This document shows, piece after piece, positions 2,594-21,551 of a DNA stretch of 64,000 bases. The stretch lies in sequence record NC_052663.1. The stretch is one strand, 5' to 3'. The DNA comes from Escherichia phage VEcB. Within the stretch, counting starts at the first letter, position 1. Every line of letters begins with the position of its first letter. Made by a program: the position numbers and the translations under genes. The notes under the pieces are model-generated. The model was not told where the DNA came from, did no database searches, and saw only the letters and a program-made list of their open reading frames with translations.

Positions 2594-3169
2594 TTATTTC
2601 TCTTCGTCAAGAAGAATTTTTACTATTTGTTTTCTTCGCTTACTTACTGTACTTTCTGGTGAAATTCCGCGCTTCGTTAGCCAATTTTTATCCTTTTTAG
2701 ACTGGCATAAAGCTATCGCTTCCTTCTCCGCTTTTGCTTCCCTGAATGTCATATCGTGCTTGTCAGCATAAGCCAAGATAGCGTTACACTGCTTACAAAC
2801 TACACGCAGGTCGTCTTCTGTTACGTACAATAGGCGTAAAACAAAACTTGGGATATCTTCATAACAGGTTAATGTACCTGCTGCATTAATATGGTCTACT
2901 TGAAAGTCTTTCATACCTCCTGTATGTCCACACAATTCACACTTACAATTCCAAACCTGTTTCGGTTTGCCTGTTTTCTTATCTAAAACTATATTTCCAT
3001 CTTTATCCAACCTATCCGCTTTAAATCGTACAGATTGGATCTTTTTTATCTTATTCGGGTGTCTCACCCATGCTTTCCTTAAGCAACCCCTTAAATATGT
3101 ATAAAAGGCTGCTTGAGTTTTCCAAGGTGTTCCATCTCCCCAAATAACTTTAGGTTCTTTATTTTCCAA
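2594..3169 (-). CDS. HNH-type endonuclease (possible homing endonuclease)
   Basis: 191 aa; CELCGH...VDHI...CKQCN arrangement resembles HNH Zn-finger nuclease motif. Confidence 0.5.
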   Translation of the reverse strand: MENKEPKVIWGDGTPWKTQAAFYTYLRGCLRKAWVRHPNKIKKIQSVRFKADRLDKDGNIVLDKKTGKPKQVWNCKCELCGHTGGMKDFQVDHINAAGTLTCYEDIPSFVLRLLYVTEDDLRVVCKQCNAILAYADKHDMTFREAKAEKEAIALCQSKKDKNWLTKRGISPESTVSKRRKQIVKILLDEEK

Positions 3170-7361: not shown

Positions 7362-8084
7362 TTAAGCAATGATTGCTGCGATATTAGGTTTAACAAAGGT
7401 AGATGGTTTCATAATTTTACCTTTGTCATCAAAGAATACGTATACCTTTTGAACTTCGTTATATACAGCATGTACCCCAGTATAAGAACCTTCTGCACGA
7501 TCTTTGCTTCGCATCTCGATAGCATCGCACTCTTTTTCAAGAGCTTCAATAATATCCTTAGTTTCCCAAATAGCCAGGAGTTGCTTCTTGGTAGGATACT
7601 TGGACTCATTGCTATTCAACACTTCACGCATAACCTTCTTCTCGTTATAAACAGAACGCACCAAAGTATCTCGTGCCATACGGGTAAGTGTAAGAGACAT
7701 TAAGGCAAATTGCAAGTCATTTTCTACCATTTTATCAAATTCAATGATAACATCGTAAATGTTCTCTGCCAGAACATCTCCTGTCGGCATTTCCAGAGCT
7801 TTATCAACACCTTCTTTACCAAAGAACATAAATGCCAGATAGGATGCTACCACAAAAATATCTGCTGCTGCATCAAGTAATTCAACGTGATCATTTTCCT
7901 GTGCTGCTGCTTGGAACTCTTTAAGTTCTTCTCGTACAAAAGAAAGTTGAGCTTCAAACATCTCTTGAGTAAACTCTGGAGTTACTCCACCACGTGCCTT
8001 AGCATTCCAAGCAACAATTTGATCGGCAGCTTTGATAAAGAAGCTATTGTCCACTTTTACTTGTTTGAAAAAATTCTCGATCAT
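7362..8084 (-). CDS. hypothetical protein, possibly MazG-like all-alpha NTP pyrophosphohydrolase
   Basis: 240 aa; ELKEFQAA...ELLDAAADIFVV loosely resembles MazG/dUTPase-like EExxE...D motifs. Confidence 0.3.
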   Translation of the reverse strand: MIENFFKQVKVDNSFFIKAADQIVAWNAKARGGVTPEFTQEMFEAQLSFVREELKEFQAAAQENDHVELLDAAADIFVVASYLAFMFFGKEGVDKALEMPTGDVLAENIYDVIIEFDKMVENDLQFALMSLTLTRMARDTLVRSVYNEKKVMREVLNSNESKYPTKKQLLAIWETKDIIEALEKECDAIEMRSKDRAEGSYTGVHAVYNEVQKVYVFFDDKGKIMKPSTFVKPNIAAIIA

Positions 8085-8093
8085 TGTTTCTCC

Positions 8094-8285
8094 TTATTTA
8101 AAATATTGTTTTGTAAATTCCACCAGATATACAACAACTGCACCCATTTGTACACCTGCTGCACCGTAGACAATCATCAGACTAGCCTTCTGCCACCATG
8201 TTGGGTGAGGGAAAGTTGATGCGACAATTATACCACAAGCAACAATAGAAAGCAACACAAGAATCAAAATAACTTCAATGCTCAT
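8094..8285 (-). CDS. small membrane protein (two predicted TM helices)
   Basis: 63 aa, two hydrophobic stretches. Confidence 0.45.
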   Translation of the reverse strand: MSIEVILILVLLSIVACGIIVASTFPHPTWWQKASLMIVYGAAGVQMGAVVVYLVEFTKQYFK

Positions 8286-8296
8286 TGCAACCTCCT

Positions 8297-8926
8297 TTAT
8301 GTTTTAATCTTGCCAAAATACAATACTTCAGCTTCCTGTCTTGCTGATATAGCATCTTCAATATCAATAAATGCTCCAAGACGGATATCTTTTCCTTGAT
8401 AGGATATACGAGCAATCCATCTTTTTTCTTTCTCGCTCCACACAACACCTGTTTTACCAGAAGTGTTATTTTTCTGTTTTCGTGTATTGTATGACTGGAC
8501 AGACCTTGTAGCCCAGCGACAATTTTCTTTACTGTAATCTTTTTCAGAGTCTATTCTGTCAAGAGATAAACCTTTAGGTCTATCTCCCATATCCTCAAAG
8601 AATGCAGAGAATGAATTTCTCCAAGCATCACAAACCTTAATACCACGACCACCGTAGTATTCAAAGTGAGTATTGTTTTTGTTATAGCATCTCCCTAACA
8701 TAGCTTCCCACGATTTGTATGCTCCTGTTTGTGTTGTTTTCGGTCTACACTTGGAACAATAAGAACTTCTATTCTTCCTAAGTGTTTCCATAGTTACCGT
8801 GCAAATATTACCACAATCACAAGAACAAGTAAAACGTCTTTTGCCATGTTTGTCCCTTTCAATCTCTTCTAAGACAGTATAACAACCGCATTTCTTACCT
8901 ACAAGGTCTACTCTCTTGGCTCCCAT
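8297..8926 (-). CDS. HNH homing endonuclease with AP2 DNA-binding domain
   Basis: 209 aa; WEAMLGRCYNKNNTHFEYYGGRGIKVCDAW and GVVWSEKEKRWIARISYQGKDIRLGAF (AP2-like). Confidence 0.6.
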   Translation of the reverse strand: MGAKRVDLVGKKCGCYTVLEEIERDKHGKRRFTCSCDCGNICTVTMETLRKNRSSYCSKCRPKTTQTGAYKSWEAMLGRCYNKNNTHFEYYGGRGIKVCDAWRNSFSAFFEDMGDRPKGLSLDRIDSEKDYSKENCRWATRSVQSYNTRKQKNNTSGKTGVVWSEKEKRWIARISYQGKDIRLGAFIDIEDAISARQEAEVLYFGKIKT

Positions 8927-10023
8927 GTTCCCTCCACCATTTCCCGTAAACGGACACCTGTTGGTTTCGTAGGTATTCCACCATCGGAAAACTCTTCATA
9001 CTCAATCTCAACAAATTTACCAATTAACATTTCGGCATTTTCTGCTTTACGATAGTTAATGGTTTCATCTGAATCCTTACGCATCAGGAATTCGACTACT
9101 TTACCATTTTCCATCTCTCCTGTCAATACCCCGTCACCATTTTTATCACGCTTTGCACTTACCACTTTAACTTCAAGCGTCTGACGTGGTTTACGTTTAA
9201 TAACATCATAAGAACGTTTATCGAATTCGTAAACACCTTTTGCGTTACGATACACTACACCTTCCGCTTTCTCACGTAGAGCTTTTGCATAGAAAGCATC
9301 AAACTGTTCTTGGTTTTCAATGTACTCTGTATGTACTACACAAATAAGTTCATCTAAACCTTTATCTTCAACAACTTCTTTTAGAGCAGCCAAAACTTGA
9401 ACCCTCTTCTCAAATGGTACAGATGCCACAGGAACATCGTATACATAATATTTAAGAAGCGGTGTGTTAGCATTATGCTTTTTCCACGCACTATTAATTT
9501 GTTGAAGGCTAAGGACACCCAAGCCAGCAAAAACTTCACCGTCAAGAGGATGACCAACTACTTCTTTAATGAAGGTTGGAATTTCTTCCCAGTGAGGTGG
9601 AAGTTTATATACCTCCCCAGCTTTAGATAAACATTCACCTTGCATGTTAATCATTGAACGTAGACCATTCAATTTATATTGTGCATAACCTGGGAACAAA
9701 ACACGGTCAGCATAATCTTTATAATCCTGACATTTCATGGGTGTGGAAGGAACATGGTTTTCAGCTTCCTCTTTTGTTTTATAATACCCATTCTTAAGTT
9801 GCTTTGTCCACTTGGCAAGAGCTTCTATTTCAGCTTGTTCTTCTGCTGTTGTTTCATTTGAGCGACCAATATTTTTAGGTTCTGCCGTATAAGATTTGCT
9901 AGTAATCTTTCCACCTAATTGACCATGAGCAACAGTTACAACACTACCTTCGGTATAGACTGACCACTGTTTAATTTTACCTGTAGAAGTTTTACCATAT
10001 AACGTAGGATTAGTTTGTTTCAT
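8908..10023 (-). CDS. ATP-dependent polynucleotide ligase (nucleotidyltransferase superfamily; DNA or RNA ligase)
   Basis: motif I YKLNGLR, motif III LDGEV, motif IV EGVVYR, motif V KRK; start placed at Met17 (GGAGG RBS) rather than track start 10071. Confidence 0.6.
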   Translation of the reverse strand: MKQTNPTLYGKTSTGKIKQWSVYTEGSVVTVAHGQLGGKITSKSYTAEPKNIGRSNETTAEEQAEIEALAKWTKQLKNGYYKTKEEAENHVPSTPMKCQDYKDYADRVLFPGYAQYKLNGLRSMINMQGECLSKAGEVYKLPPHWEEIPTFIKEVVGHPLDGEVFAGLGVLSLQQINSAWKKHNANTPLLKYYVYDVPVASVPFEKRVQVLAALKEVVEDKGLDELICVVHTEYIENQEQFDAFYAKALREKAEGVVYRNAKGVYEFDKRSYDVIKRKPRQTLEVKVVSAKRDKNGDGVLTGEMENGKVVEFLMRKDSDETINYRKAENAEMLIGKFVEIEYEEFSDGGIPTKPTGVRLREMVEGTWEPRE

Positions 10024-10213
10024 CTTTAACCTCCAGTTGCGAAAGAACCCATTTAGCCATTTCAATTTCACCGTGCAGTCTGCCTAGTTCATAGGCATCA
10101 TCAATATTACCACCAGTGTAATCATCCACCATAAAGTAAGGATCTTCGCTACTGTTAGGTGCGTTTGCAATTCTCGTTAGTTCTTCAATAAATGTCATAG
10201 TTACCCTTACCAA
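10010..10213 (-). CDS. hypothetical protein
   Basis: 67 aa ORF. Confidence 0.4.
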   Translation of the reverse strand: MVRVTMTFIEELTRIANAPNSSEDPYFMVDDYTGGNIDDAYELGRLHGEIEMAKWVLSQLEVKDETN

Positions 10214-10431
10214 TTATACACAAGAGTTTGAATCTCTTCCATCAAGTCTTCAAGATCTGTATCAACATATTCAGAAGATGTTGCCATAAAGTATGTAATC
10301 ATTGTGAACCCTTCCGAAGAAAGGGCATCAAGGATATCATTAAACATATCTTCCATTTCAGTATTCTCACCAAATGAGAATAACATTTGTTGATCTTCGC
10401 TTACACCTTTAACATAGATAGCTGTACTCAT
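10207..10431 (-). CDS. hypothetical acidic protein
   Basis: 74 aa ORF, Asp/Glu-rich. Confidence 0.4.
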   Translation of the reverse strand: MSTAIYVKGVSEDQQMLFSFGENTEMEDMFNDILDALSSEGFTMITYFMATSSEYVDTDLEDLMEEIQTLVYNW

Positions 10432-10434
10432 ATA

Positions 10435-10755
10435 TTAATCCTTAAGACGTTCATTTAAATCTGCAATAACATCACCTAAATCTTCACATTCCAGTGTTAA
10501 CTCTGAAACTTGTCCACTCAAATAACAAACCTCTTCATTTAGATCTGAAATAATGTTTTCTAATGAATCTACTTGGTCATCATACGAACGTTTTGTTTCT
10601 TCAAGTTCTTCCGTAAGATCATTAATCAAACTGAGCAAAGATAAGATATAGCCGTCTCCTGTCTCGTTCCTCCACTCACTTCCGTAGCGATAAATAATAA
10701 TTTCACCATTATCGACTACTGTAAAATACTTACCTTCACCAGAATAAATTTCCAT
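10435..10755 (-). CDS. hypothetical protein
   Basis: 106 aa ORF. Confidence 0.4.
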   Translation of the reverse strand: MEIYSGEGKYFTVVDNGEIIIYRYGSEWRNETGDGYILSLLSLINDLTEELEETKRSYDDQVDSLENIISDLNEEVCYLSGQVSELTLECEDLGDVIADLNERLKD

Positions 10756-10764
10756 ACGCTCTCC

Positions 10765-11169
10765 TTATTGTAGCTTAAGTGAACTGCGAAGACGTTTCTC
10801 TTGCTGATCACGAATATGTTGTGGAACCTCATGAATTGAGTCGTTACCGTGCCTATTTTCAACAACTAAAGAGATAACTTGATAACCAAACTCTTCGGCA
10901 AGAGTAAAATAAGGTTTAAGTTCTTTCTCTGTGGTTGAAGTGTTAGAGACAATAATCTTTTTAATATTAGATGCCATAGCATCACGAACAATACTCTGAC
11001 ACCATGCGTGTGCTTTACCTACATTTTCTGGCTTCCAATCGTAAGCCCCGTTTTCTGTGTAATGATATTGATCTGCCTCACAGATAGGCCAATAACCTTC
11101 AGAAATAATTTCTGCTACTGTAGATTTACCTGCACCTGAAACACCACGTAAAATGATAAGTTGTTTCAT
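10765..11169 (-). CDS. P-loop kinase (polynucleotide-kinase-like)
   Basis: 134 aa; Walker A GVSGAGKST at N-terminus; adjacent to ligase-like and phosphoesterase genes. Confidence 0.55.
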   Translation of the reverse strand: MKQLIILRGVSGAGKSTVAEIISEGYWPICEADQYHYTENGAYDWKPENVGKAHAWCQSIVRDAMASNIKKIIVSNTSTTEKELKPYFTLAEEFGYQVISLVVENRHGNDSIHEVPQHIRDQQEKRLRSSLKLQ

Positions 11170-12102
11170 TTAGCCTCCAAAGAAGTTTTCTATTTCTTTA
11201 CGTCGCTCTTGTGGGTCTAGAGCAGCCCATTGAACCTTCGTAAAGTTATTTCGAAGCCATTCTAGCAAAGTATAATATTCTTCGTCAACAATTTGTTTAG
11301 CATTTTTTGGGTTGTCCCAAATCATATCCCACTTCTTATTGCCACCACGCATAAGGAACTTCTTAGCAAGATAGTATGGTGACTTAATCTTTAAGAGTAA
11401 GTTAAACGGATAGTTTGTTTCACGAACAACAAAGCCTTCGTGTCTACAATGTTTAGACATTTCAACAACATCTGAAAATTTAATCATCGGATAAACTTCA
11501 GGACGTTTAAATTTTGTAATAGATGCAATCCCATCAAGAACACCTTCAGGTAACATGAAACTTGTCCCATCCAGGTTTTGAATTCTTGCTCCAATTAAGT
11601 ACGCGCCTGGTTCTTCTTCGACAATATGTGGATCAGAAGGATCGCAGATTTCAAAAAGAAAAGTTGCTTTTGCACTTTCTGTCCACTTAATGAAATACTC
11701 TATGTCGTCACACTCGGAAACAATACGGTTCTTTGCCATAATTGCAAAATCTGATTCTAGGCTCCCTGTTGTTGATACAACAAGTTTCCCTTTGTACACA
11801 CCTACAGATGCCATAAAACCGTTTACTTTACGGACAGCATCTACAAGTTGGTCTGCTGGAAGATCTGTACCATTTTCAAAACGATTAAAGATTTTAGTAA
11901 AAGGCCAAATAACAACATTGTCTTCTGAGTCAACAACCAACCCACGACAATCTAGAAGGCGTTTGTCTACGTCCCACAAATTGTCCCAGAATACATTGTT
12001 TTTGTATTTAAGTACAGCAAGACCAGCATACTCTCCAGATTTAACTTCTTTTTTATGCACTAAACCTTTTGCAATCAGGTCATCACAATTGAACTTAGCC
12101 AC
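11170..12102 (-). CDS. RNA-ligase-like nucleotidyltransferase
   Basis: 310 aa; candidate motif I RKVNG, motif IV EGFVVRE, motif V LLLKIKSP. Confidence 0.5.
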   Translation of the reverse strand: MAKFNCDDLIAKGLVHKKEVKSGEYAGLAVLKYKNNVFWDNLWDVDKRLLDCRGLVVDSEDNVVIWPFTKIFNRFENGTDLPADQLVDAVRKVNGFMASVGVYKGKLVVSTTGSLESDFAIMAKNRIVSECDDIEYFIKWTESAKATFLFEICDPSDPHIVEEEPGAYLIGARIQNLDGTSFMLPEGVLDGIASITKFKRPEVYPMIKFSDVVEMSKHCRHEGFVVRETNYPFNLLLKIKSPYYLAKKFLMRGGNKKWDMIWDNPKNAKQIVDEEYYTLLEWLRNNFTKVQWAALDPQERRKEIENFFGG

Positions 12103-12103
12103 C

Positions 12104-12655
12104 TTAATCTCCTTTGATTATCTTATGATGATCTACAACAACAATATCACGCTTATCCATAATAGAGATGATTTCGTCAAAATGCAAGATTTTTCCGTGT
12201 ACGTCCCAACCAACATCCAACATTTTCCCATACAAATGATCAGGGAATGATCCGTGAGAGTGCCCGTGTAGCATGATTGATCCATGCCCTTGTTTATTCC
12301 AGGCAGCCATAGGGTAATGACTTAAGACGAAGAACAGTTTCTGATATTTCACTTCGTCATAATATACCACTTCACCATACTCTGCAAGCACTTTTCTGTG
12401 CTTACTGTAATCATGGTTCCCAACACAGTAAGTAATATCCCCTTGGAGACGGGAAGCAATCTTACGGGTATCTTCTTCAGTCCCGAAACAGAAGTCCCCA
12501 AGATGGTACATTTTTACTCCTGGTGTTGTGGCACATTTGTTCCATGCTTCGATCAGTGCTTCTGTCATATGCTCCATATCTTCCCACGGGCGATATTCAG
12601 GAGCAAACTCTCGAATACGTTTGTGCATAAAATGCAAATCACTTGTAATAAACAT
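12104..12655 (-). CDS. calcineurin-like metallophosphoesterase
   Basis: 183 aa; DLHF, HLGDF, VGNHDY, HGHSHG metallophosphatase motifs. Confidence 0.7.
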   Translation of the reverse strand: MFITSDLHFMHKRIREFAPEYRPWEDMEHMTEALIEAWNKCATTPGVKMYHLGDFCFGTEEDTRKIASRLQGDITYCVGNHDYSKHRKVLAEYGEVVYYDEVKYQKLFFVLSHYPMAAWNKQGHGSIMLHGHSHGSFPDHLYGKMLDVGWDVHGKILHFDEIISIMDKRDIVVVDHHKIIKGD

Positions 12656-13014
12656 TAGTATAATCCCTCGCTGAATAGTTCACTGTCGTGACCATTTCTT
12701 TCATAGTTAATTTGTTTGGCGTTATCTGCAATGATATAAGCATCTTTGCGACTCCACCAATTATAATACTGATCAATAAACCCTTGATTATCAGGTAAGC
12801 AAAACAGTTTATCGATCAATCCTGCATCTTTTAAAACATTAAGTTGTGCAGATAGTACAGGATTTGCATGCCTAACACAAGGAATAATTAACTCTTCGCC
12901 ATTGTTGAGAATATACTTATTCGCAGCGCAGACTATAACACGTTGAGCATAGTGATCCTCACCAATCCAGGTAAGAGGTTGGTAACAAATATCATGTTGA
13001 TTAGTAGCGCACAT
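12655..13014 (-). CDS. hypothetical protein
   Basis: ORF; ATG at 13014 preferred over TTG at 13017. Confidence 0.45.
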   Translation of the reverse strand: MCATNQHDICYQPLTWIGEDHYAQRVIVCAANKYILNNGEELIIPCVRHANPVLSAQLNVLKDAGLIDKLFCLPDNQGFIDQYYNWWSRKDAYIIADNAKQINYERNGHDSELFSEGLY

Positions 13015-13160
13015 CAATTTTCTTCATACTCTTCGTCTGTATATATATCGTAAAAGCAATCTTCAAAAGTTGCAAGTGCTTTTTCTACATCGGGCCAATG
13101 GTTAGTGTGTTTGTATACATAAAACCCATCCCCTTCATCTACCCAAATAACATAAAGCAT
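13014..13160 (-). CDS. small hypothetical protein (48 aa, not in ORF track)
   Basis: ATG with AAGGAGG RBS; stop overlaps next start (ATGA). Confidence 0.3.
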   Translation of the reverse strand: MLYVIWVDEGDGFYVYKHTNHWPDVEKALATFEDCFYDIYTDEEYEEN

Positions 13161-13169
13161 AACACCTCC

Positions 13170-13544
13170 TTAATAGTTAACACGTTTAATTTCAACACCA
13201 TAGGATGAAATAAAATTTTCCTTAGCTAACATATATTTACCAGCAGCAGAAGGATTTGATGTATGAACATAGATAGTTTTAAGAGCATCCCATTCACCTG
13301 CGTACAACATACATTCTACATCTAAGAACGCATGATATCCTTCTTGATCTTCCCCAAGATCATTATCGAAGTGTATTTCTGAGATGTTATTGAAATTATC
13401 TTCATCTGAAACAAAAGATGACCAATCCCCAAAAGATTTTAACCAAATGGCATCCTCATAACCATAATCTTTAGGATCTCTTAAATCGTCTAACCAAAGA
13501 ATTTTAGCCACTATCAACCCCCTTCCTGTTTCTCTTCTTTCCAA
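13170..13544 (-). CDS. hypothetical protein
   Basis: 124 aa ORF. Confidence 0.45.
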   Translation of the reverse strand: MERRETGRGLIVAKILWLDDLRDPKDYGYEDAIWLKSFGDWSSFVSDEDNFNNISEIHFDNDLGEDQEGYHAFLDVECMLYAGEWDALKTIYVHTSNPSAAGKYMLAKENFISSYGVEIKRVNY

Positions 13545-13705
13545 GTTTTACCTTTATCTACCAATTGCTTAGAAACAGCAAATCTTTCTCCATTGACATA
13601 AAACAGATAAAGAATAAAGGATTTTCCTATAGTTACAGTATCTACTACTTCTACACGCTTTACACCTTGCATGTATTTGGCTTTACCTGAATAAATAAGG
13701 AACAT
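13514..13705 (-). CDS. hypothetical protein
   Basis: 63 aa ORF. Confidence 0.35.
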   Translation of the reverse strand: MFLIYSGKAKYMQGVKRVEVVDTVTIGKSFILYLFYVNGERFAVSKQLVDKGKTWKEEKQEGG

Positions 13706-13983
13706 TATTTATTCCTTTTGTTGTTGATCACATCTAAAGCTGTGTAAGGTTTGTTTGTACCGCTGTATTCAAGAATAATTGGTGCATGTTCATAGACAAA
13801 CTCAAAAGTACCATACACAGAATCTGCAACTGAAATAAGCATTTCAGTGCCTTCATCGTTCTTAATTAATGAAAACCTTGCCCCTGGTTTATTGAGCACT
13901 TCATATTTCTTACCTGCTGTCAGCAAACCTGAATACCATTCATTTTGCACAACAGACAAACACTTCAGATAGGTTTTTCTCAT
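13705..13983 (-). CDS. hypothetical protein
   Basis: 92 aa ORF. Confidence 0.4.
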   Translation of the reverse strand: MRKTYLKCLSVVQNEWYSGLLTAGKKYEVLNKPGARFSLIKNDEGTEMLISVADSVYGTFEFVYEHAPIILEYSGTNKPYTALDVINNKRNK

Positions 13984-14321
13984 TTCTTTTTGCTCCTTCT
14001 TTTAGGCTTCTCGTATAAACCTAACACAGCAGACTCTTTTGCACAAATAGGAACTGACTTCATTCCTCGTTTTTTGGCTTCTGGTAGATTCAAAACCCAC
14101 CAGCCAAACCAATACAATTCATCTTCTGTGAAAGGATCTGCCATAGGATCTGCATCACGTTCTTCAAATCTAGCAAGAGCTTCTTCTATCTTCTCTATTG
14201 GAGTATCAAAGACAAAAGCCTCTGTGTCAAATTTTTGTTTCTTAGGAGCGGCCTTTGCCGCCCCATCTTTAGATGCGTGCTTTGTTACGGATCGCTTCTT
14301 CGGTGTTTTCGCCATCAACAA
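13980..14321 (-). CDS. hypothetical protein with basic termini
   Basis: 113 aa ORF. Confidence 0.4.
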   Translation of the reverse strand: MLMAKTPKKRSVTKHASKDGAAKAAPKKQKFDTEAFVFDTPIEKIEEALARFEERDADPMADPFTEDELYWFGWWVLNLPEAKKRGMKSVPICAKESAVLGLYEKPKRRSKKK

Positions 14322-14508
14322 CCTCCATACGGTGTAAGAAATCTTGCTGGAATCGCCAATACTGTTGACCAGTCCTTACATCTTCGTAGATCACAACAGG
14401 ATCAAACACTTTAGATACACCAGCTGGTTTAGGAAAACCAACTACACGATATAAACCACCTTTACTAATACAAGAATATGTTACATCAGTTAAAATTTCT
14501 TTTTTCAT
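14269..14508 (-). CDS. hypothetical protein
   Basis: 79 aa ORF. Confidence 0.35.
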   Translation of the reverse strand: MKKEILTDVTYSCISKGGLYRVVGFPKPAGVSKVFDPVVIYEDVRTGQQYWRFQQDFLHRMEVVDGENTEEAIRNKARI

Positions 14509-14702
14509 TTTTTAATAAACTCCAAAACAGGTACGTGATCAGCAGTCAAAGTTACACAATTGTAACTTACCTTTTCAACTTCAGAGAATGCTTCAACCCA
14601 AAGCAAGAAATTCTCTTTAGCTTCTTCATAATTCAATGTTGACTTAACAACATGGAACTCACCAAGAATTACTCTATAGATTGTTTGCATAGTTTGATTC
14701 AT
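14505..14702 (-). CDS. hypothetical protein
   Basis: 65 aa ORF. Confidence 0.35.
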   Translation of the reverse strand: MNQTMQTIYRVILGEFHVVKSTLNYEEAKENFLLWVEAFSEVEKVSYNCVTLTADHVPVLEFIKK

Positions 14703-14768
14703 TTATTTTTCCTTTGTTTAAAATGTGTTAAACAATCGCAAATGCTTGTGACGCACTTTGTGATCCCA

Positions 14769-15137
14769 CTAATTAACGTCAGCACTATGATTGTTGAGAG
14801 TATAGGATACTCCATCGCCCAAGTCAACATGAATCTCAACTCCTAACTGTCTTTCTAATGGTAAACGTTTTGAGAATTGATAATTACAAAGTTTGCAATC
14901 TAAGTCAAGCAACTCATGTTTGCTTAAGCCTGGGATGATAACTTTGCTTCCTACTGTCCACTCAATACCTTCAAAGTTATCTCTTCTTTTCAAAATGTCA
15001 AGTAAGAAGATGATTTGTTGCCATTCCGTAGACAAGTCTTCTTCATAGAACGCAGAACAAAAAGTTTTATCATCGTAGAAAGCATACATTATGCCTCCAT
15101 CTATTGTTTCACTTCTAACGTACCGTGTGACCCTCAT
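14769..15137 (-). CDS. hypothetical protein
   Basis: 122 aa ORF with GGAGGG RBS. Confidence 0.45.
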   Translation of the reverse strand: MRVTRYVRSETIDGGIMYAFYDDKTFCSAFYEEDLSTEWQQIIFLLDILKRRDNFEGIEWTVGSKVIIPGLSKHELLDLDCKLCNYQFSKRLPLERQLGVEIHVDLGDGVSYTLNNHSADVN

Positions 15138-15479
15138 TATTCCCTCCTATACGGCTCTGTAACGAGCTAATGGCCTTTAAGATATGCAATCACCTTACCT
15201 CACAGTAAAACTCGTTACAATCGTTTTTAGGAGGTTTAGGTTGTACTTAAAAATAATCCAAAAAGGTGTTGACAAACGCAAAAAAGTATGCTACCCTAAC
15301 CCCCGAAAAACGCCGAGCGCAGCGAGGGGGGTGTTATCTAATCTTGTGATACATGATCTAACAGACAACTGAGTAGTCTACATATAGCACTATGTTATGT
15401 CTATAATACTAACATACGTACTCTATACTAACAATAGATTCTTTAATAATTTTATTATTAATTAAATAATAAATATCTA

Positions 15480-15508
15480 TTGACTTTAGATCTATCTGTA
15501 TGTAGAGT
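15480..15508 (+). promoter_or_regulatory. sigma70-like promoter TTGACT-N17-TAGAGT with AT-rich upstream region
   Basis: -35 at 15480-15485, -10 at 15503-15508, about 40 nt upstream of prs start. Confidence 0.45.
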
Positions 15509-15547
15509 AGAGAACATAAAGTCCTAACTCAACTAAGGAGATAAACA

Positions 15548-16441
15548 ATGAAAGTTAGTATTCTACATGGTGTTGACTGTTATGTTACTGATGTAGACGT
15601 TAAAGTCTTTACATTCTCTGGTGGAGAACAACATGTTCAACTAGACACGAATCTATCAGGTTTCAATCATGCTACAGACAGAATCTTACTCTCTTTAGAA
15701 GTAAGATCTGCTAAAGACTTGATGACTTTGGTTATGACTAAGAATGCATTGGACAATATGCTATATCATAAACCATATTGTGTTGATTTGCTCATGTTGT
15801 ATGTGCCATATGCACGACAAGACAGAGTGTGTGAACCTGGGGAAGCATTCGGAGTTAAAGCATTTGCTTCTATAATTAATTCATTAAATTTCTCACGTGT
15901 TATCGTTGCTGATCCACATAGTGATGTTACTCCAGCGGTGTTTGACAGACTCTGTGTAATACCTCAAGAAGAGATTGCTTACGAAACTTTAAAGTGGAAG
16001 TTACGTATGGAGAATTTTGCTCTTGTTAGTCCTGATGGTGGTGCTCTTAAGAAAATATTTAAATTATCTAAGAAAATGTCTTTAGATGTGTTCTGTGCAG
16101 AGAAGGTTAGAGATACTGCAACAGGTGCTATTGTTCGTACAGACATTTCTGTACAGGATTTCAATAAGCGTAACCTGATGATCGTAGATGATATCTGTGA
16201 TGGTGGTAGAACTTTTATCGAATTGGCTAAAGTGCTACGTGCTCGTAACGCAGGTAAGATTGAGTTATATGTTACACACGGTATCTTTTCTAAAGGTCTT
16301 AAAGAGTTAAGTGAGCACTTTGACTGCATTCATTCTCTTAATGTGTGGGAAGATAACATCCAAGAAGATTCCGGTGTTCTTGTTAAGAATCAGTCAGATT
16401 TGCAACAACAAATTGTATCTCCATACGTGTGGAATTTTTAA
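15548..16441 (+). CDS. prs: ribose-phosphate pyrophosphokinase (PRPP synthetase)
   Basis: 297 aa; PRPP-binding motif LMIVDDICDGGRTF; AAGGAG RBS. Confidence 0.8.
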   Translation: MKVSILHGVDCYVTDVDVKVFTFSGGEQHVQLDTNLSGFNHATDRILLSLEVRSAKDLMTLVMTKNALDNMLYHKPYCVDLLMLYVPYARQDRVCEPGEAFGVKAFASIINSLNFSRVIVADPHSDVTPAVFDRLCVIPQEEIAYETLKWKLRMENFALVSPDGGALKKIFKLSKKMSLDVFCAEKVRDTATGAIVRTDISVQDFNKRNLMIVDDICDGGRTFIELAKVLRARNAGKIELYVTHGIFSKGLKELSEHFDCIHSLNVWEDNIQEDSGVLVKNQSDLQQQIVSPYVWNF

Positions 16442-16512: not shown

Positions 16513-18246
16513 ATGAATATTTTTGCACCTTTTGCTACTGATTGGTATAAGCCTGGTCACAAGCAGATGTACAACCAAAATACAAAACTCATTTTCTCTA
16601 ATTTAACTCCTCGTAATGATAAAAACTTTGCACACTATGCAGATCGTGAAGCACGTGGTGTCATTGTTTTAGGTATTCGTCGAGCAGTAACCGATGCTCT
16701 TGTAACTATGTGGGACGGCTTCTTTAAAATGTCTCGTAGTGCAGCAGTAAATAAATTTTATCGTATGTCTAAAAATGCATTAGGTGCTTCTGCTCCTTCT
16801 GCTGAATGTTGGGGAGAATTGCACGATTTAGGTTATCTTCCGCTAGAAGTTCGATCTCTGCCAGAAGGTGTTTTGTGTCCTATTGGTGTTCCTGTGTTTA
16901 CTGTGCATAACACTTTAGAAAAATTCTTTTGGTTAACTAACTATGTGGAAACACTATTGTCAGATGAAACTTGGAAGACAATGACTAACGCCACAGCAGC
17001 TTTTCAGTATAAGCGTATCGCTATGGCGTATGCGATGGCAACGTGTGATAACATTGATCACGTTAATTTCCAGTGTCATGACTTTAGTCTACGTGGCTTA
17101 AGCAATATCGAAGATGGTTATAAGAGTGGTATCGCTCATTTGGCATCTTTCACAGGAACAGATAATATTCTGGCTATTGAGACTGTGCATGATTATTATG
17201 GTATTGATTATGATCAGTTTGTTGCAGGTTCTATTCCGGCAACAGAACATTCAGTAGCAACGACTAACATTGGAGCTATTGTTGAAGATCTGAAGAAACA
17301 TTTCCCACATCTTAAAGATGATGTTGATGGGCTTCGTTATGTAGCAGAGAAAGAGTTTCTTCGCCGCTATATCGAAGAAATTGTTCCAGAAGGTTTTTGT
17401 TCATATGTAGCAGATTCTTATGACTACTGGGCTGTCTTGACTCGCATTCTGGTAGAATTGAAAGAATCCATTATGTCACGAAATGGTCGTCTTGTTATTC
17501 GTCCAGATTCAGGAGATCCGGTTAAAGTTGTTGCAGGATACAATGTTGAATCTTTTGATAACTATGAAGACCTTTTAAATAATGGTATTGCTCCAGCCAC
17601 TGAAGTAGTTCATTTGGCTGATGTTAATAAGTATTACAATGTTCTTCAGGATTGCAGTGTTGCTGATTGTATTGATGAAACTTATGAGATTCCTTATTGT
17701 GAAGCAGTAGGTTCTATTCAAATCCTTTGGGAAGTGTTTGGTGGTACTATCAACCGAAAAGGCTACAAGGTTCTTGATCAGCACATCGGTATGATTTATG
17801 GTGATTCTATTACTGTTGAACGAGAACACGAAATCTTACGCCGACTGAAGAAGAAAGGTTTTGCAGCTTCCAATATTGTATTTGGTGTTGGTAGTTATAC
17901 TTATCAGTTCAATACACGAGATACTTTTGGTTTTGCTGTTAAAGCAACAGGTAGTATCATCGGTGAACACGAAATTTTGGTAAGTAAGGAGCCTAAAACT
18001 GATCCTGGTAAACGTTCTGCAAAAGGTTTTATTAAGGTTGTTAAGGATACAAACGGTAAACTTTCTCTCGTGGATAATCTTTCTTTTAAAGATATTCAAG
18101 ATGAAGACAATGAGTTAAAAGTTATCTTCAGGGATGGTACGGTTATTACACCACAAGTAGAAGGACGTGATGAAACATTTACGGATATCCGCAATCGTGT
18201 TGATGTAGAGGTTCTTCGTACTATGGGAACCATCCAGGTTGACTAA
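16513..18246 (+). CDS. nadV: nicotinamide phosphoribosyltransferase (NAMPT/NadV)
   Basis: 577 aa; N-terminal FATDWYKPGHKQMY resembles the conserved NAMPT TDSYK-x-THYKQY region; size typical of NadV. Confidence 0.8.
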   Translation: MNIFAPFATDWYKPGHKQMYNQNTKLIFSNLTPRNDKNFAHYADREARGVIVLGIRRAVTDALVTMWDGFFKMSRSAAVNKFYRMSKNALGASAPSAECWGELHDLGYLPLEVRSLPEGVLCPIGVPVFTVHNTLEKFFWLTNYVETLLSDETWKTMTNATAAFQYKRIAMAYAMATCDNIDHVNFQCHDFSLRGLSNIEDGYKSGIAHLASFTGTDNILAIETVHDYYGIDYDQFVAGSIPATEHSVATTNIGAIVEDLKKHFPHLKDDVDGLRYVAEKEFLRRYIEEIVPEGFCSYVADSYDYWAVLTRILVELKESIMSRNGRLVIRPDSGDPVKVVAGYNVESFDNYEDLLNNGIAPATEVVHLADVNKYYNVLQDCSVADCIDETYEIPYCEAVGSIQILWEVFGGTINRKGYKVLDQHIGMIYGDSITVEREHEILRRLKKKGFAASNIVFGVGSYTYQFNTRDTFGFAVKATGSIIGEHEILVSKEPKTDPGKRSAKGFIKVVKDTNGKLSLVDNLSFKDIQDEDNELKVIFRDGTVITPQVEGRDETFTDIRNRVDVEVLRTMGTIQVD

Positions 18247-18993: not shown

Positions 18994-19069
18994 GGTTCCA
19001 TAGCTCACTGACGAGAGCGCACACCTCATAAGTGTCGAGGGCAGGGATTGTAACCCTGGGGAACCACCA
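18994..19069 (+). tRNA. tRNA with anticodon CAT (Met or Ile2), atypical T-loop
   Basis: hand fold: acceptor GGTTCCA/GGGAACC, D-stem GCTC/GAGC, anticodon loop CTCATAA, T-loop ATTGTAA, encoded CCA. Confidence 0.5.
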
Positions 19070-19100
19070 TTTAAAAGGAGGTGCTATGCATCTCCTATAT

Positions 19101-19186
19101 GCAAGTGTGGTGGAATTGGTGATACACATTGTGCTTAAAACGCAACGCTTAAATGATTGAGGGTTCGAATCCCTCCACTTGCACCA
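19101..19186 (+). tRNA. tRNA-Leu (anticodon TAA), type II
   Basis: acceptor GCAAGTG/CACTTGC, anticodon loop CTTAAAA, long variable arm, T-arm GAGGGTTCGAATCCCTC, CCA. Confidence 0.75.
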
Positions 19187-19188
19187 AC

Positions 19189-19297
19189 GCCTAGTAGGGT
19201 ATTTGGTAATTCCGAGGCCATCAAAGCCTGAAAAATATGTTAGACCGTTTTGTCTAACTAAATACGAAATATGGTTCGATTCCATAACTAGGCTCCC
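19189..19297 (+). tRNA. atypical tRNA-like element; anticodon-like loop CATCAAA (TCA) with about 40-nt variable region; possibly pseudogene
   Basis: perfect 7-bp acceptor GCCTAGT/ACTAGGC and T-arm TATGGTTCGATTCCATA, but 4-bp anticodon stem, A at position 33, internal 7-bp hairpin GTTAGAC/GTCTAAC, no CCA. Confidence 0.35.
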
Positions 19298-19329
19298 GAT
19301 TTAAATAGTAATTTTTTAATAAAAATATC

Positions 19330-19358
19330 TTGACATTTACTTAGTTTTTTGTTATAGT
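19330..19358 (+). promoter_or_regulatory. sigma70-like promoter TTGACA-N17-TATAGT
   Basis: -35 at 19330-19335, -10 at 19353-19358, immediately upstream of a tRNA-like element. Confidence 0.5.
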
Positions 19359-19369
19359 TACTATGAAAA

Positions 19370-19451
19370 CGGGGTGTATCTCACCTGACTTCTAATCAGG
19401 CGTTAACCGAGTAATTGGAGTATGCAGGTTCGAATCCTGTCACCCCGGCCA
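19370..19451 (+). tRNA. atypical tRNA-like element (canonical acceptor, T-arm and CCA; anticodon-like loop CTTCTAA; no recognisable D-arm)
   Basis: acceptor CGGGGTG/CACCCCG, T-arm GCAGGTTCGAATCCTGT, hairpin CCTGA-CTTCTAA-TCAGG, GNRA hairpin CCGA-GTAA-TTGG; D region only 7 nt. Confidence 0.35.
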
Positions 19452-19469
19452 AAAAGTTTTAAAAACTAC

Positions 19470-19499
19470 TTGACAAGCAAGATAGTTTTATGTTAGATT
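19470..19499 (+). promoter_or_regulatory. sigma70-like promoter TTGACA-N18-TAGATT
   Basis: -35 at 19470-19475 upstream of tRNA-Ser. Confidence 0.4.
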
Positions 19500-19514
19500 T
19501 AAAGTATGGTAACA

Positions 19515-19604
19515 GGAAGGTAGGGCGCAGCGGTGCGCAACCAGGTTTGAACCCTGGCCCATTGTAGCGATACGGTGATGGTTCGACTCCATTATCTTCC
19601 TCCA
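19515..19604 (+). tRNA. tRNA-Ser (anticodon TGA), type II
   Basis: acceptor GGAAGGT/ATCTTCC, anticodon arm CCAGG-TTTGAAC-CCTGG, long variable arm, T-loop TTCGACT, CCA. Confidence 0.7.
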
Positions 19605-19610
19605 AATTCA

Positions 19611-19775
19611 ATGAGTGATTTTATGAATTATAAAACTATTGGACAGGTTGTTACCGGAGTTAAGATTGTAAATAATAAAGTTGTTTATGAGTATTCTAAT
19701 CTTCAACAATCTGAAGATGGTAAGAATATTCGTATGGTAAAAGCAGAACAAAAAGATTCCGGTTGTTTTGAATAA
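19611..19775 (+). CDS. small hypothetical protein inside tRNA island (start uncertain)
   Basis: track ORF 19575-19775 begins inside tRNA-Ser; first ATG outside the tRNA is at 19611; no clear RBS. Confidence 0.25.
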   Translation: MSDFMNYKTIGQVVTGVKIVNNKVVYEYSNLQQSEDGKNIRMVKAEQKDSGCFE

Positions 19776-19783
19776 TTAAAAAC

Positions 19784-19869
19784 GGTAGATTGGTGAAATG
19801 GTAGCCACAACAGTTTGCTAAACTGTCGTCGGAAACGGCGTGTAGGTTCAAGTCCTACATCTACCGCCA
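19784..19869 (+). tRNA. tRNA-Ser (anticodon GCT), type II
   Basis: acceptor GGTAGAT/ATCTACC, 3-bp D-stem, anticodon loop TTGCTAA, long variable arm, T-arm GTAGGTTCAAGTCCTAC, G73, CCA. Confidence 0.7.
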
Positions 19870-19997
19870 AGTTATCTTTAATGTAGCGTTGAGGCTACTT
19901 ACTTTAGCAGAGTAAACTTTCGGCAGATGGTGGCAGCCATTTTACCGATACCTCATAGTCAGTGCCGCAAACACTGGCTATTTTAAAGATAATTTAT
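19870..19997 (+). ncRNA. structured non-coding region without tRNA T-arm (possible small stable RNA)
   Basis: hairpins GTAGC-N6-GCTAC and CAGTG-CCGCAAA-CACTG; no ORF; lies between tRNA genes. Confidence 0.25.
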
Positions 19998-20072
19998 ACA
20001 TCGTTAGCTTAGTTGGTAGAGCAAGGGCTTTTAACTCCAAGGTCGAAGGTTCGAATCCTTCACGATGTACCA
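19998..20072 (+). tRNA. tRNA-Lys (anticodon TTT), weak anticodon stem
   Basis: acceptor ACATCGT/ACGATGT, D-arm GCTTAGTTGGTAGAGC, loop CTTTTAA, T-arm GAAGGTTCGAATCCTTC, CCA; anticodon stem has two mismatches. Confidence 0.6.
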
Positions 20073-20077
20073 AACAC

Positions 20078-20164
20078 GTAGGTATCGCATAGCGGCAATT
20101 GCTGGAGACTGTAAATCTCCTGCCCTTCGGGGCTTCGTTGGTTCGAGTCCAACTACCTGCACCA
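20078..20164 (+). tRNA. tRNA-Tyr (anticodon GTA), type II
   Basis: acceptor GTAGGTA/TACCTGC, anticodon arm GGAGA-CTGTAAA-TCTCC, variable hairpin GCCC-TTCG-GGGC, T-loop TTCGAGT, A73, CCA. Confidence 0.75.
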
Positions 20165-20171
20165 AATTAAA

Positions 20172-20256
20172 GATGGATTGGCCTAGTGGTTGGGCGACGG
20201 ACTGTTAATCCGTGAACGAAAGTTCTAGCAAGGTTCAAATCCTTGATCCATCGCCA
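20172..20256 (+). tRNA. type II (long variable arm) tRNA carrying Asn anticodon GTT
   Basis: acceptor GATGGAT/ATCCATC, D-stem GCC/GGC, anticodon arm ACGGA-CTGTTAA-TCCGT, 15-nt variable arm with GAAC-GAAA-GTTC hairpin, T-arm CAAGGTTCAAATCCTTG, G73, CCA. Confidence 0.6.
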
Positions 20257-20260
20257 AATA

Positions 20261-20328
20261 GTGCTTGTAGAGTTAATAGAAACCTCTAGAATTTTCTAGA
20301 ATTGTAGGTATCAAATCCTACCAAGCAA
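20261..20328 (+). pseudogene. degenerate tRNA-like remnant
   Basis: acceptor-like GTGCTTG...CAAGCA, T-arm-like GTAGG-TATCAAAT-CCTAC (8-nt loop), palindrome TCTAGA-ATTT-TCTAGA in place of anticodon arm. Confidence 0.3.
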
Positions 20329-20335
20329 ATATTTT

Positions 20336-20410
20336 GCTCCTATCGTATAACGGCTATTACGGTTGCCTTGTAAGCAACTTATCAGGGTTCGAGTCCTTGT
20401 GGGAGCACCA
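20336..20410 (+). tRNA. tRNA-Thr (anticodon TGT)
   Basis: acceptor GCTCCTA/TGGGAGC, anticodon arm GTTGC-CTTGTAA-GCAAC, T-loop TTCGAGT, CCA. Confidence 0.75.
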
Positions 20411-20427
20411 ATTTTAACTCTAAAGGA

Positions 20428-20757
20428 GTGTATGTGACAGAAAAAGAGTTAGAGAAATATTTTAATATCAATGTTTTCGATGGTTTTGATGATATTGAAG
20501 ATGTTGAAAGATATTATGAAGTAGAGTTAGATAGGGATAACATTGTAATTCTTTCTGCCACTTATGATTGTGCATATTATGAAGGCGAATCTCACGTTTA
20601 TTTTTATGATATGAAAACATCTTTGTTTTATGAAGTACACGCATATCATTGTTCTTGTTATGGCTTAGAAGGTCAGTGGGAACCTGAAGAAATAGGTGAT
20701 TTGGACTTTACTATTGCATATCTAAACAGACGTGGTTCATCTACTATTTTAAAATAA
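20428..20757 (+). CDS. hypothetical protein (GTG start at 20428 or 20434)
   Basis: 109 aa ORF directly after tRNA-Thr; AAAGGAG RBS abuts the GTG. Confidence 0.4.
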   Translation: MYVTEKELEKYFNINVFDGFDDIEDVERYYEVELDRDNIVILSATYDCAYYEGESHVYFYDMKTSLFYEVHAYHCSCYGLEGQWEPEEIGDLDFTIAYLNRRGSSTILK

Positions 20758-20771
20758 ATATCAAAAGCCTC

Positions 20772-20801
20772 TTGACAAAGGGGCTAATAATATGTTAGAG
20801 T
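20772..20801 (+). promoter_or_regulatory. sigma70-like promoter TTGACA-N18-TAGAGT
   Basis: -35 at 20772-20777 upstream of tRNA-Gly. Confidence 0.4.
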
Positions 20802-20812
20802 AATATTGTTAA

Positions 20813-20887
20813 GCGGGTATAGTGTTAATGGTAGCATATGAGGTTTCCACCCTCCAGGTGCAGGTTCAAGTCCTGTTACTCGCTCCA
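20813..20887 (+). tRNA. tRNA-Gly (anticodon TCC)
   Basis: acceptor GCGGGTA/TACTCGC, anticodon loop TTTCCAC, T-arm GCAGGTTCAAGTCCTGT, CCA. Confidence 0.6.
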
Positions 20888-20901
20888 AGATTATTTAAAT
20901 G

Positions 20902-20967
20902 GAATCGCTAGAGAAAATTTCTCTTTTTGCTCATGGTTTTCTCCTTCAAACTCTAGCGGTTCTTTTT
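20902..20967 (+). other. long imperfect hairpin (12-bp stem, about 37-nt loop) followed by T run
   Basis: GAATCGCTAGAG at 20902-20913 pairs with CTCTAGCGGTTC at 20951-20962 (11 of 12), then TCTTTTT. Confidence 0.3.
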
Positions 20968-20986
20968 AAGTGATTTTTTAGTTTAT

Positions 20987-21061
20987 TGGAGATTAGCCTA
21001 GTGGGAAGGCAACGGCCTTTGAAGTCGTGATGACTAGGTTCGATTCCTAGATCTCCAGCCA
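20987..21061 (+). tRNA. tRNA-Gln (anticodon TTG)
   Basis: acceptor TGGAGAT/ATCTCCA (U1-A72), anticodon arm ACGGC-CTTTGAA-GTCGT, T-arm CTAGGTTCGATTCCTAG, CCA. Confidence 0.7.
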
Positions 21062-21103
21062 ATTAATTGCATAGCATGAGTATTTCTCATTGGTTAAAAG
21101 GAG

Positions 21104-21469
21104 ATGCAAGTGAATTGTGAACATTGTGGTAGTGAGTTTACTTTGATAAAAGGTCATGGTGGACAAAACAGATTATACTGTTACACTTGTATTCCAGAAG
21201 GTTTAGATAAACAAGTACACACAAGATTACATCAAGAGCTTAGAAGAGAGCGATCTCATAGGATGAAACTTGATTTAGGTTGCAAAGTGTGTGGTTATGC
21301 TAAATGTGCAGTAGCACTAGAATGGCATCACCCAGAGGACGATAAGAAACACAATCCATCAAATGCAATCAAAAGATCTTGGTCTGCTTACTTAGAAGAG
21401 ACTGAAAAGTGTATCTTACTATGTGCCAATTGTCATAGAGAAGTACATGCTGGTCTTATACAGGTTTAA
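21104..21469 (+). CDS. HNH endonuclease (small, inside tRNA island)
   Basis: 121 aa; Cys pairs CEHCG and CYTC, C-terminal LLCANCHREVH HNH motif. Confidence 0.55.
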   Translation: MQVNCEHCGSEFTLIKGHGGQNRLYCYTCIPEGLDKQVHTRLHQELRRERSHRMKLDLGCKVCGYAKCAVALEWHHPEDDKKHNPSNAIKRSWSAYLEETEKCILLCANCHREVHAGLIQV

Positions 21470-21470
21470 T

Positions 21471-21546: not shown

Positions 21547-21551
21547 AATTT

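Follow-up and report, generated by a model that had tools for sequence, protein, structure and literature searches.

A conserved three-gene cassette of Escherichia phage VEcB with the predicted enzymes for healing and sealing broken RNA

The genome of Escherichia phage VEcB (NC_052663.1), of which a stretch of 64,000 nucleotides (the window) was analysed, harbors between positions 10765 and 12655 a cassette of three genes for a metallophosphoesterase (MPE), an RNA ligase and a P-loop kinase. The three genes probably form a stand-alone heal-and-seal system for the repair of cleaved RNA, most likely tRNA cut by host defence nucleases. RNA end healing and sealing had been proposed in a preliminary description of the window, and it is the best-supported reading of the cassette, as predicted from the protein families, the intact residues and the conserved linkage. 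The evidence comprises family membership, intact catalytic residues, operon structure, three-gene linkage and fused relatives. The source phage is a Stephanstirmvirinae coliphage of the Justusliebigvirus/Phapecoctavirus-like type; positions 10000–14000 of the window share 98% identity with phages EC_OE_11 and KKE7M and with the BASEL phage Bas60 PaulScherrer, and the kinase protein shows 100% identity to vecB_091 of phage VEcB. The preliminary description had read three co-oriented, packed genes from positions 10765–12655 together with a set of signature motifs. The open reading frames (ORFs) lie at exactly these coordinates and contain every one of the motifs:

12655–12104, minus strand: MPE, 183 aa, predicted 3'-end healing enzyme
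12102–11170, minus strand: Rnl1-type ATP-dependent RNA ligase, 310 aa, GTG start, predicted sealing enzyme
11169–10765, minus strand: P-loop polynucleotide-kinase-like protein, 134 aa, predicted 5'-OH kinase

The spacings at the upstream ORF/MPE, MPE/ligase and ligase/kinase junctions are −1, 1 and 0 nt, respectively, and at each junction of the cassette a Shine-Dalgarno sequence is present within the preceding gene. The upstream ORF and the MPE gene overlap in TAATG. The MPE gene ends in ...AAAGGAGATTAA and is followed by one base (G) and then by the GTG of the ligase, while the ligase gene ends in ...GGAGGCTAA with the ATG of the kinase directly after it. Judging by these junctions, MPE, ligase and kinase are translationally coupled. 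The catalytic motifs of all three proteins are intact and invariant across homologues, and the profile matches in Pfam, PHROG and the PDB agree with the three enzyme classes named earlier, i.e., phosphoesterase, nucleotidyltransferase ligase and P-loop kinase.

The ligase carries the motifs KVNG (residues 92–95), EGFVVR (222–227) and KIK (238–240). It matched the Pfam family RNA_lig_T4_1 (PF09511) across model positions 2–227 of 227 with an E-value of 6.9e-14 (52.7 bits, the gathering score being 28.3), and a family profile of 25 homologues, with identity down to 48%, found T4 Rnl1 (2c5u) as its sole match in the PDB (4.4e-11, residues 51–250). The residues R53, K70, K92-x-N94-G95, S110-T-T-G113, F150-E151, E222-G223 and K238-x-K240 were invariant in the 25 homologues and F72 was conserved in at least 90%; the invariant positions align with lecRG, meKfFN, KeDG, FEfv, EGYV and fKiKs of T4 Rnl1 and coincide with the essential residues of that enzyme. 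The nucleotidyltransferase motifs I (with the KxxG lysine nucleophile), Ia, III, IV and V as well as the Rnl1-specific N-terminal Arg and Lys/Phe are all present. Structural comparison by Foldseek of an AlphaFold (AF2) model of the ligase (pLDDT 89.7) with the PDB placed T4 Rnl1 at the top (2.6e-13 to 3.6e-12, TMq 0.62–0.66), followed by fungal Trl1-LIG (~1e-11), Rnl3 (1e-10 to 1e-8), Rnl2 (~1e-6) and Rnl5 (~1e-5), and no Pnkp ligase structure was found within the top 50 matches. With T4 Rnl1 ranking first by both sequence and structure, the protein falls firmly inside the covalent nucleotidyltransferase superfamily, and as judged from sequence and model it belongs to the tRNA-repair/splicing clade, being Rnl1/Trl1-like and not Pnkp-type. 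Its C-terminal region is short and consists of ~65 aa of helices past motif V (242–307 in the model).

The P-loop GVSGAGKST of the kinase is located at residues 9–17. The protein matched AAA_33 (PF13671) with an E-value of 5e-10 (40.2 bits, the gathering score being 27) and, over residues 1–104, the polynucleotide kinases of PHROG family phrog_505 (3e-9). A kinase profile of 29 sequences, when compared with the PDB, met polynucleotide kinases first, namely, Pnkp1 (4xrp, 2.6e-6), Clostridium thermocellum CthPnk (4gp7, 2.7e-5), the Mucorales RNA 5'-OH kinase (9d8a, 3e-5) and T4 Pnk (1ly1, 1.3e-4), and these outranked gluconate, nicotinamide riboside, adenylate and thymidylate kinases. The invariant residues include G12, G14, K15, T17, D33, N76-T77 and E104-R106-H107; D33 aligns with the aspartate of SSD in CthPnk and of RDD in Pnkp1, and R106 with the lid Arg of CthPnk. 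Two other readings of the 134-aa protein were rejected. As a deoxynucleoside monophosphate kinase, it matched the corresponding PHROG family just over the P-loop (residues 1–35, 1.4e-4), in contrast to the 104 residues covered by the polynucleotide kinase family, and as a small-molecule kinase, its PDB profile matches to gluconate and nicotinamide riboside kinases trailed those to polynucleotide kinases by 100- to 1000-fold. On sequence grounds, the kinase is nearest to the kinases of Pnkp1, CthPnk and T4 Pnk and is the sole member of the cassette close to the parts of Pnkp. Pfam revealed no second domain in its 134 aa, such as the C-terminal DxDxT acylphosphatase of T4 Pnkp, and no HAD-type polynucleotide kinase phosphatase was found among the cassette neighbours.

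In the MPE, the motifs DLHF and GNHD occupy residues 6–9 and 79–82, and the binuclear metal site is complete and invariant. The protein matched the phosphoesterase family phrog_547 (8e-55); its match to Pfam Metallophos_2 (21 bits) was under the gathering score of 27. It is a binuclear metallophosphoesterase of the aq_1665 type and not of the lambda/CthPnkp type; among its structural neighbours aq_1665 is followed by the phosphodiesterases MJ0936 and YfcE and by LpxH, and the phosphatase of CthPnkp ranks only 40. Enzymes of the MPE superfamily, including the CthPnkp phosphatase and lambda phosphatase, heal 2',3'-cyclic phosphate ends (PMC2190708, PMC3675462), and by analogy the VEcB MPE is predicted to act as a 2',3'-cyclic phosphodiesterase and/or a 3'-phosphatase. 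Candidate fusions among the MPE homologues (the 275-aa proteins P0336 and P0342) were discarded, as Pfam gave the MPE domain alone. In Staphylococcus phage K, the MPE gene is present 3.2 kb upstream of genes for phosphoribosyl pyrophosphate (PRPP) synthetase and nicotinamide phosphoribosyltransferase (NAMPT), and this closeness of MPE and NAD+ salvage recurs in Gram-negative and Gram-positive phages.

The conservation of the trio was evaluated in 70 IMG/VR loci anchored on the ligase (30–97% identity, 51 clusters at 80% identity), whose six-frame ORFs were searched with hidden Markov models of the three families. In 67 of the 70 loci the MPE family was detected (E 1e-29 to 1e-80), and in 65 the kinase family (E 1e-22 to 1e-67). 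Both genes were located within 10 kb of the ligase in 46 of the 51 clusters and within 3 kb in 44, and at least three of the nine misses fell at contig ends. With M, R and K denoting MPE, ligase and kinase, the same-strand order M-R-K of VEcB was found in 20 clusters and its mirror image K-R-M in 24; the single exception was one rV5-like cluster with the order M'K'R, not all on one strand. The ligase is thus almost always the middle gene of the trio, and the gaps between MPE and ligase, on the same strand, are often 0–500 nt. The linkage of the three genes is far beyond chance, and the trio is a conserved functional module. A search of 50,697 phage records identified the ligase in 605 and the kinase in 614 with nearly identical distributions, the ligase/kinase counts by genus being 197/196 for Escherichia, 175/173 for Pseudomonas, 83/89 for Vibrio and 36/36 for Klebsiella. 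The carriers include therapeutic Pseudomonas phages of the genus Pakpunavirus and rV5/phi92-like coliphages.

Fused relatives of the cassette enzymes were identified in bacteria. Metagenome-assembled genomes of Cardiobacteriaceae encode a kinase-Rnl1 ligase fusion of ~500 aa with an aq_1665-type MPE directly after it (L079:7434–9573; also L087, L101 and L108). In Leptolyngbyaceae, a chromosomal 712-aa protein combines kinase, MPE and ligase (L098:6768–8906 of Leptolyngbya sp. PCC 7375; L104; ~25 other loci). Its healing domains are CthPnkp-type (4gp6, 3.5e-11; 4j6o, 2.5e-24), and its ligase domain is Rnl1-like (Pfam RNA_lig_T4_1) and, among cellular relatives, the one closest to the phage ligase. 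These fusions support a functional coupling of the cassette enzymes. The Leptolyngbyaceae protein resembles a hybrid, "Pnkp with an Rnl1 ligase," and is restricted to one cyanobacterial family.

According to the proposed mechanism, the trio would be expressed from one translationally coupled operon of the early region. The MPE would turn a cyclic or 3'/2' phosphate end into a 3'-OH, possibly assisted by a cyclic-phosphate-processing receiver (cREC) protein encoded nearby, which may open the cyclic phosphate. The 134-aa kinase would next phosphorylate the 5'-OH by means of the P-loop residues K15 and S16/T17, with Asp33 as the putative general base and Arg106 as the lid residue. The Rnl1-type ligase, adenylylated on Lys92, would finally activate the 5'-phosphate and seal the nick. 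For the tRNA substrates, the reaction of the MPE and the part played against host defence, the proposal relies on analogy with T4 Pnkp/Rnl1, CthPnkp and lambda phosphatase (PMC3592404, PMC2190708, PMC3675462).

Several observations weigh against the repair of tRNA by this route. The literature yielded no biochemical or genetic study of the cassette. The C-terminal tRNA-specificity domain of T4 Rnl1 (~120 aa) has no detectable sequence match in the ligase, the alignment ending at T4 residue 250, and tRNA is therefore only a presumed substrate. The kinase position equivalent to Arg38 of T4 is His36 or Phe and not Arg. The MPE is the weakest link of the repair model, as its family is broader than the module and its nearest solved relative, aq_1665, has no function assigned; a literature search for the function of aq_1665 gave nothing relevant, and after aq_1665 the structural ranking continues with LpxH and generic phosphodiesterases. 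The MPE family is present in 1183 phage records, about twice as many as the ligase, and it occurs with no Rnl1 ligase or kinase nearby in Staphylococcus phage K (gp076, L112:6998–7525), in Vibrio phage D414 (L113:5956–6528) and in T5-like Vibrio phages. A stand-alone MPE is also found in Aeromonas TS3 and in a 192-kb contig. Of 50 MPE-anchored viral loci flanked on either side by at least 5 kb, 19 contained the ligase and 29 contained no ligase, kinase or NAD+ salvage genes.

As the MPE family is wider than the ligase and often found alone, the role of the MPE is not limited to the repair pathway. This distribution, the phosphodiesterases and LpxH that follow aq_1665 in the structural ranking, and the NAD+ salvage genes often located near the MPE would suit an alternative in which the ligase and the kinase alone act on RNA and the MPE is a general phage phosphodiesterase travelling with the cassette, its substrates being, for example, nucleotide second messengers that serve host immunity, derivatives of ADP-ribose or other small phosphoesters. 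Such a bystander role is nevertheless unlikely, since the MPE almost always adjoins the ligase when the ligase is present, on the same strand and in two mirrored orders that keep the two genes side by side. It is translationally coupled to the ligase in VEcB and directly follows the kinase-ligase fusion in Cardiobacteriaceae. In addition, removal of the MPE would leave the cassette without an enzyme to heal 3' ends, a step on which the ligase chemistry depends after cuts by metal-independent RNases. The narrower proposal of the MPE as an NAD+-salvage helper (ADP-ribose pyrophosphatase) was rejected in its own right, as NAMPT was found without the ligase in just 2 of the 50 MPE-anchored loci; it is kept as a part of the bystander alternative, in which little confidence is placed.

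The genes surrounding the cassette are as follows:

13170–13544, minus strand: cREC protein (PF20274, 3.9e-13), two genes upstream of the MPE
12655–13017, minus strand: 120-aa phrog_839 ORF, translationally coupled to the MPE through the TAATG overlap
8908–10071, minus strand: ATP-dependent DNA ligase (PF01068; phrog_114, 1e-75), 0.7 kb downstream of the cassette
8297–8926, minus strand: HNH homing-endonuclease-like gene, overlapping the 3' end of the DNA ligase by 19 nt
7362–8084, minus strand: MazG-like nucleotide pyrophosphohydrolase (PF01503, 3.2e-7; phrog_671), 30% identical to Bas59 orf193
15548–16441, plus strand: PRPP synthetase (Pfam Pribosyltran/Pribosyl_synth)
16513–18246, plus strand: NAMPT (NAPRTase, 2.6e-37)

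The preliminary description had counted a second ligase at 8908–10023 among the signs of a broader tRNA-protection strategy; the ORF extends to position 10071 and encodes a DNA ligase. T4 Pnkp is active on both DNA and RNA, and the kinase and the MPE could in principle heal DNA ends (5'-OH and 3'-phosphate) for this DNA ligase in replication or repair, the Rnl1-like enzyme being secondary. The DNA ligase is present on the same strand as the cassette and within 10 kb in 27 of the 70 ligase loci, and the surrounding block also holds recombination/replication genes (RdgC-like and exonucleases). However, an Rnl1-type ligase is positioned between or beside both healing genes in ~90% of clusters, whereas the DNA ligase is found in 39% of loci and at variable distance, and the fusions pair the kinase with an RNA ligase and not with a DNA ligase. 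A DNA-end function of the cassette is thus improbable.

Iyer, Burroughs, Anantharaman and Aravind (2022) described a T4-like tRNA ligase together with cREC, a nucleotide kinase, MazG and a calcineurin-like phosphoesterase in the "Escherichia phage V5 / Proteus phage Mydo" neighbourhood (PMC9503650, section 3.7.3), and all five genes are present on one strand of the window between 7362 and 13544. That work centres the system on a sirtuin and treats the phosphoesterase as "occasional," whereas the window is without a sirtuin and the MPE (67/70) and the kinase (65/70) are constant. When viewed from the ligase, the MPE and the kinase are the constant core and the sirtuin, which accompanies 11 of the 70 loci, is the occasional element. 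The NAD+-dependent form of RNA repair of Iyer et al., in which a KptA-like sirtuin would strip the 2'-phosphate and the MPE or cREC would process ADP-ribose cyclic phosphate by-products instead of RNA ends, draws on the sirtuin-centred organisation of this neighbourhood in phage V5-type phages, on the Bas59 sirtuin two genes past the RNA ligase and on the cREC, MazG and NAD+ salvage genes of the window, but it is highly improbable for VEcB because the 64-kb window contains no sirtuin homologue (tblastn of the Bas59 sirtuin, best E 1.8; no SIR2 Pfam match in ~30 neighbouring ORFs), just 11 ligase loci have one as against 67 with the MPE, and no match to KptA/Tpt1, 2H or Macro was found among the neighbours scanned.

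With the heal-and-seal reading retained, the cassette was compared with known repair systems. Similar to T4 tRNA repair, in which Pnkp and Rnl1 counter the anticodon nuclease PrrC, it brings together a predicted 5'-kinase, a predicted 3'-end phosphatase and an Rnl1-family ligase in a lytic coliphage; the VEcB ligase is truly homologous to T4 Rnl1, and the VEcB kinase is related to the kinase domain of T4 Pnk. The VEcB trio is contiguous, unlike pseT and rnlA, which are dispersed in the T4 genome. The T4 kinase is fused to a HAD/DxDxT acylphosphatase (PMC3592404), whereas in VEcB the kinase stands free and the predicted phosphatase is a binuclear MPE unrelated to that of T4. T4 Rnl1 has 374 aa as compared with the 310 aa of the VEcB ligase, in which the C-terminal domain of T4 Rnl1 has no detectable sequence match.

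The cassette had been called split Pnkp-like, and this description holds in part. The three modules are analogous to those of bacterial Pnkp, as the Pnkp-Hen1 system of C. thermocellum likewise combines the superfamilies of P-loop kinase, binuclear MPE acting as 2',3'-phosphatase and ATP-dependent ligase (PMC3675462, PMC2190708), and the kinase is nearest to the Pnkp type. The ligase, being Rnl1/Trl1-like, and the MPE, being of the aq_1665 type, do not fit the description. The bacterial Pnkp-Hen1 and Pnkp1-Rnl-Hen1 systems therefore differ from the cassette in the MPE family and the ligase family, and also in Hen1; no methyltransferase was found among the immediate neighbours scanned with Pfam (7362–15137), the sole methyltransferase match in these scans being the distant DNA methylase at 60680–61411. 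CthPnkp is one trifunctional polypeptide, whereas in VEcB there are three ORFs with stop codons between them; in Pnkp1-Rnl-Hen1 of Capnocytophaga the ligase is already a separate polypeptide (PMC4411300). The cassette is hence analogous to Pnkp and not a split Pnkp by descent. The fungal/plant tRNA ligase Trl1, a ligase-kinase-cyclic phosphodiesterase fusion, resembles the cassette in its Rnl1-like ligase, the second-best structural match of the VEcB ligase (9qw7, 6n0t and 8rbj; ~1e-11), and in its P-loop RNA 5'-kinase. Trl1 works through a 2H cyclic phosphodiesterase, and the 2'-phosphate left behind is later taken off by Tpt1, whereas the VEcB cassette contains an MPE but neither 2H nor Tpt1. 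The domains of Trl1 are fused in one polypeptide and differ in order, whereas the VEcB genes are separate.

The repair of tRNA by a phage RNA ligase, kinase and phosphoesterase is an established idea, and both database annotations and publications have already extended it to these phages. The GenBank annotations of Bas60 and Bas59 include "polynucleotide kinase," "RNA ligase" and "putative phosphoesterase," in Bas60 at homologous positions, and phage ATP-dependent RNA ligases were described as working with polynucleotide kinases and phosphoesterases, the calcineurin-like ones included (Iyer et al., 2021; PMC7824862, section 3.4.9). Given these sister-phage annotations and the published neighbourhood (PMC9503650, section 3.7.3), the suggestion that the arrangement may be undescribed is unsupported. 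The cassette is real, widely conserved and known already as a module with a predicted role in RNA repair, and the additions made here are modest, namely, the MPE and the kinase as constant core, the aq_1665 type of the MPE and the fused relatives. It is tentatively suggested, at a level of confidence somewhat short of even, that the aq_1665-type MPE represents a family whose function in healing RNA 3' ends has so far gone unrecognised, and that together with a minimal kinase and a short Rnl1 ligase it would make up a self-contained, NAD+-independent, three-protein tRNA repair system, the core of a module present in ~1.2% of sequenced phages, to which sirtuin, cREC and MazG would be lineage-specific additions. 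If this were true, an orphan structural-genomics fold would gain a function and phage tRNA repair a second, non-T4 paradigm. If the prediction of RNA repair holds, the cassette would be a widespread phage counter-defence against tRNA-cleaving immunity, i.e., PrrC/RloC-type anticodon nucleases and other ribotoxins generating cyclic phosphates, with an end-healing phosphatase different from that of T4. Such a system would bear on phage host range and on the design of phage therapy, and it could yield compact new RNA end-modifying enzymes.

Among the neighbouring genes, cREC is predicted to open 2',3'-cyclic phosphates (PMC7824862, PMC9503650). The VEcB protein is 49% identical to a Bas59 ORF placed between the RNA ligase and the sirtuin, and cREC was detected in 10 of the 70 ligase loci; it is probably an accessory, lineage-restricted partner. 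MazG, found in 13 of the 70 loci, is lineage-restricted as well. The phrog_839 ORF gave no match in Pfam, NCBIfam or the PDB, and as a candidate fourth component of the cassette it was set aside, being present in 3 of the 70 loci, all close relatives, so that its membership is doubtful. Downstream of the cassette, three small ORFs, the DNA ligase, the HNH endonuclease and the MazG-like pyrophosphatase are present on the same strand. The PRPP synthetase and NAMPT genes for NAD+ salvage are divergent from the cassette, and within 10 kb of the ligase NAMPT was found in 39 and PRPP synthetase in 29 of the 70 loci. Close relatives vary in the HNH gene at 8297–8926, some having it (L007) and others lacking it (L006), as would fit a mobile insertion, and further HNH genes are located at 2594–3169 and 63480–63992.

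Farther from the cassette, the window contains the following features:

18994–22104, plus strand: tRNA array, 15 tRNAs by ARAGORN, 14 by Rfam and ~16 in their union
60680–61411, minus strand: N6/N4 DNA methyltransferase (PF01555, 1.9e-30), ~48 kb from the cassette
62878–63492, minus strand: Pol-beta-type nucleotidyltransferase, 204 aa (phrog_1614, 1.2e-34), 50 kb from the cassette

The tRNA array is smaller than the island of 18 genes counted in the preliminary description. Rfam misses the tRNAs at 18994–19069 (Met) and 19515–19604 (Ser) and adds a tRNA-like element at 19370–19448 (38.6 bits). Isoacceptors that are targets of anticodon nucleases (Lys-UUU, Tyr, Asn, Thr and Gln) are represented in the set, and the array may supply repair substrates as well as replacement tRNAs. 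A CCA-adding-like enzyme had been read at 62878–63471. The ORF extends to 63492 and encodes a Pol-beta-type protein whose match to the Pfam PolyA_pol head domain (20.6 bits) is under the gathering score of 23; with 204 aa the protein falls short of the length of a canonical CCA-adding enzyme, and it could be an RNA-end nucleotidyltransferase. The DNA methyltransferase is probably an anti-restriction self-methylase. A simple sigma-70 promoter and terminator scan of the 7–16 kb region was uninformative, its counts not being above those of shuffled controls, and the divergent junction at ~15100–15550 likewise gave no sigma-70 signal over shuffles. The sign of the GC skew flips at ~15–16 kb, i.e., at this divergent junction between the minus-strand early block containing the cassette and the plus-strand block of PRPP synthetase, NAMPT and tRNA genes.

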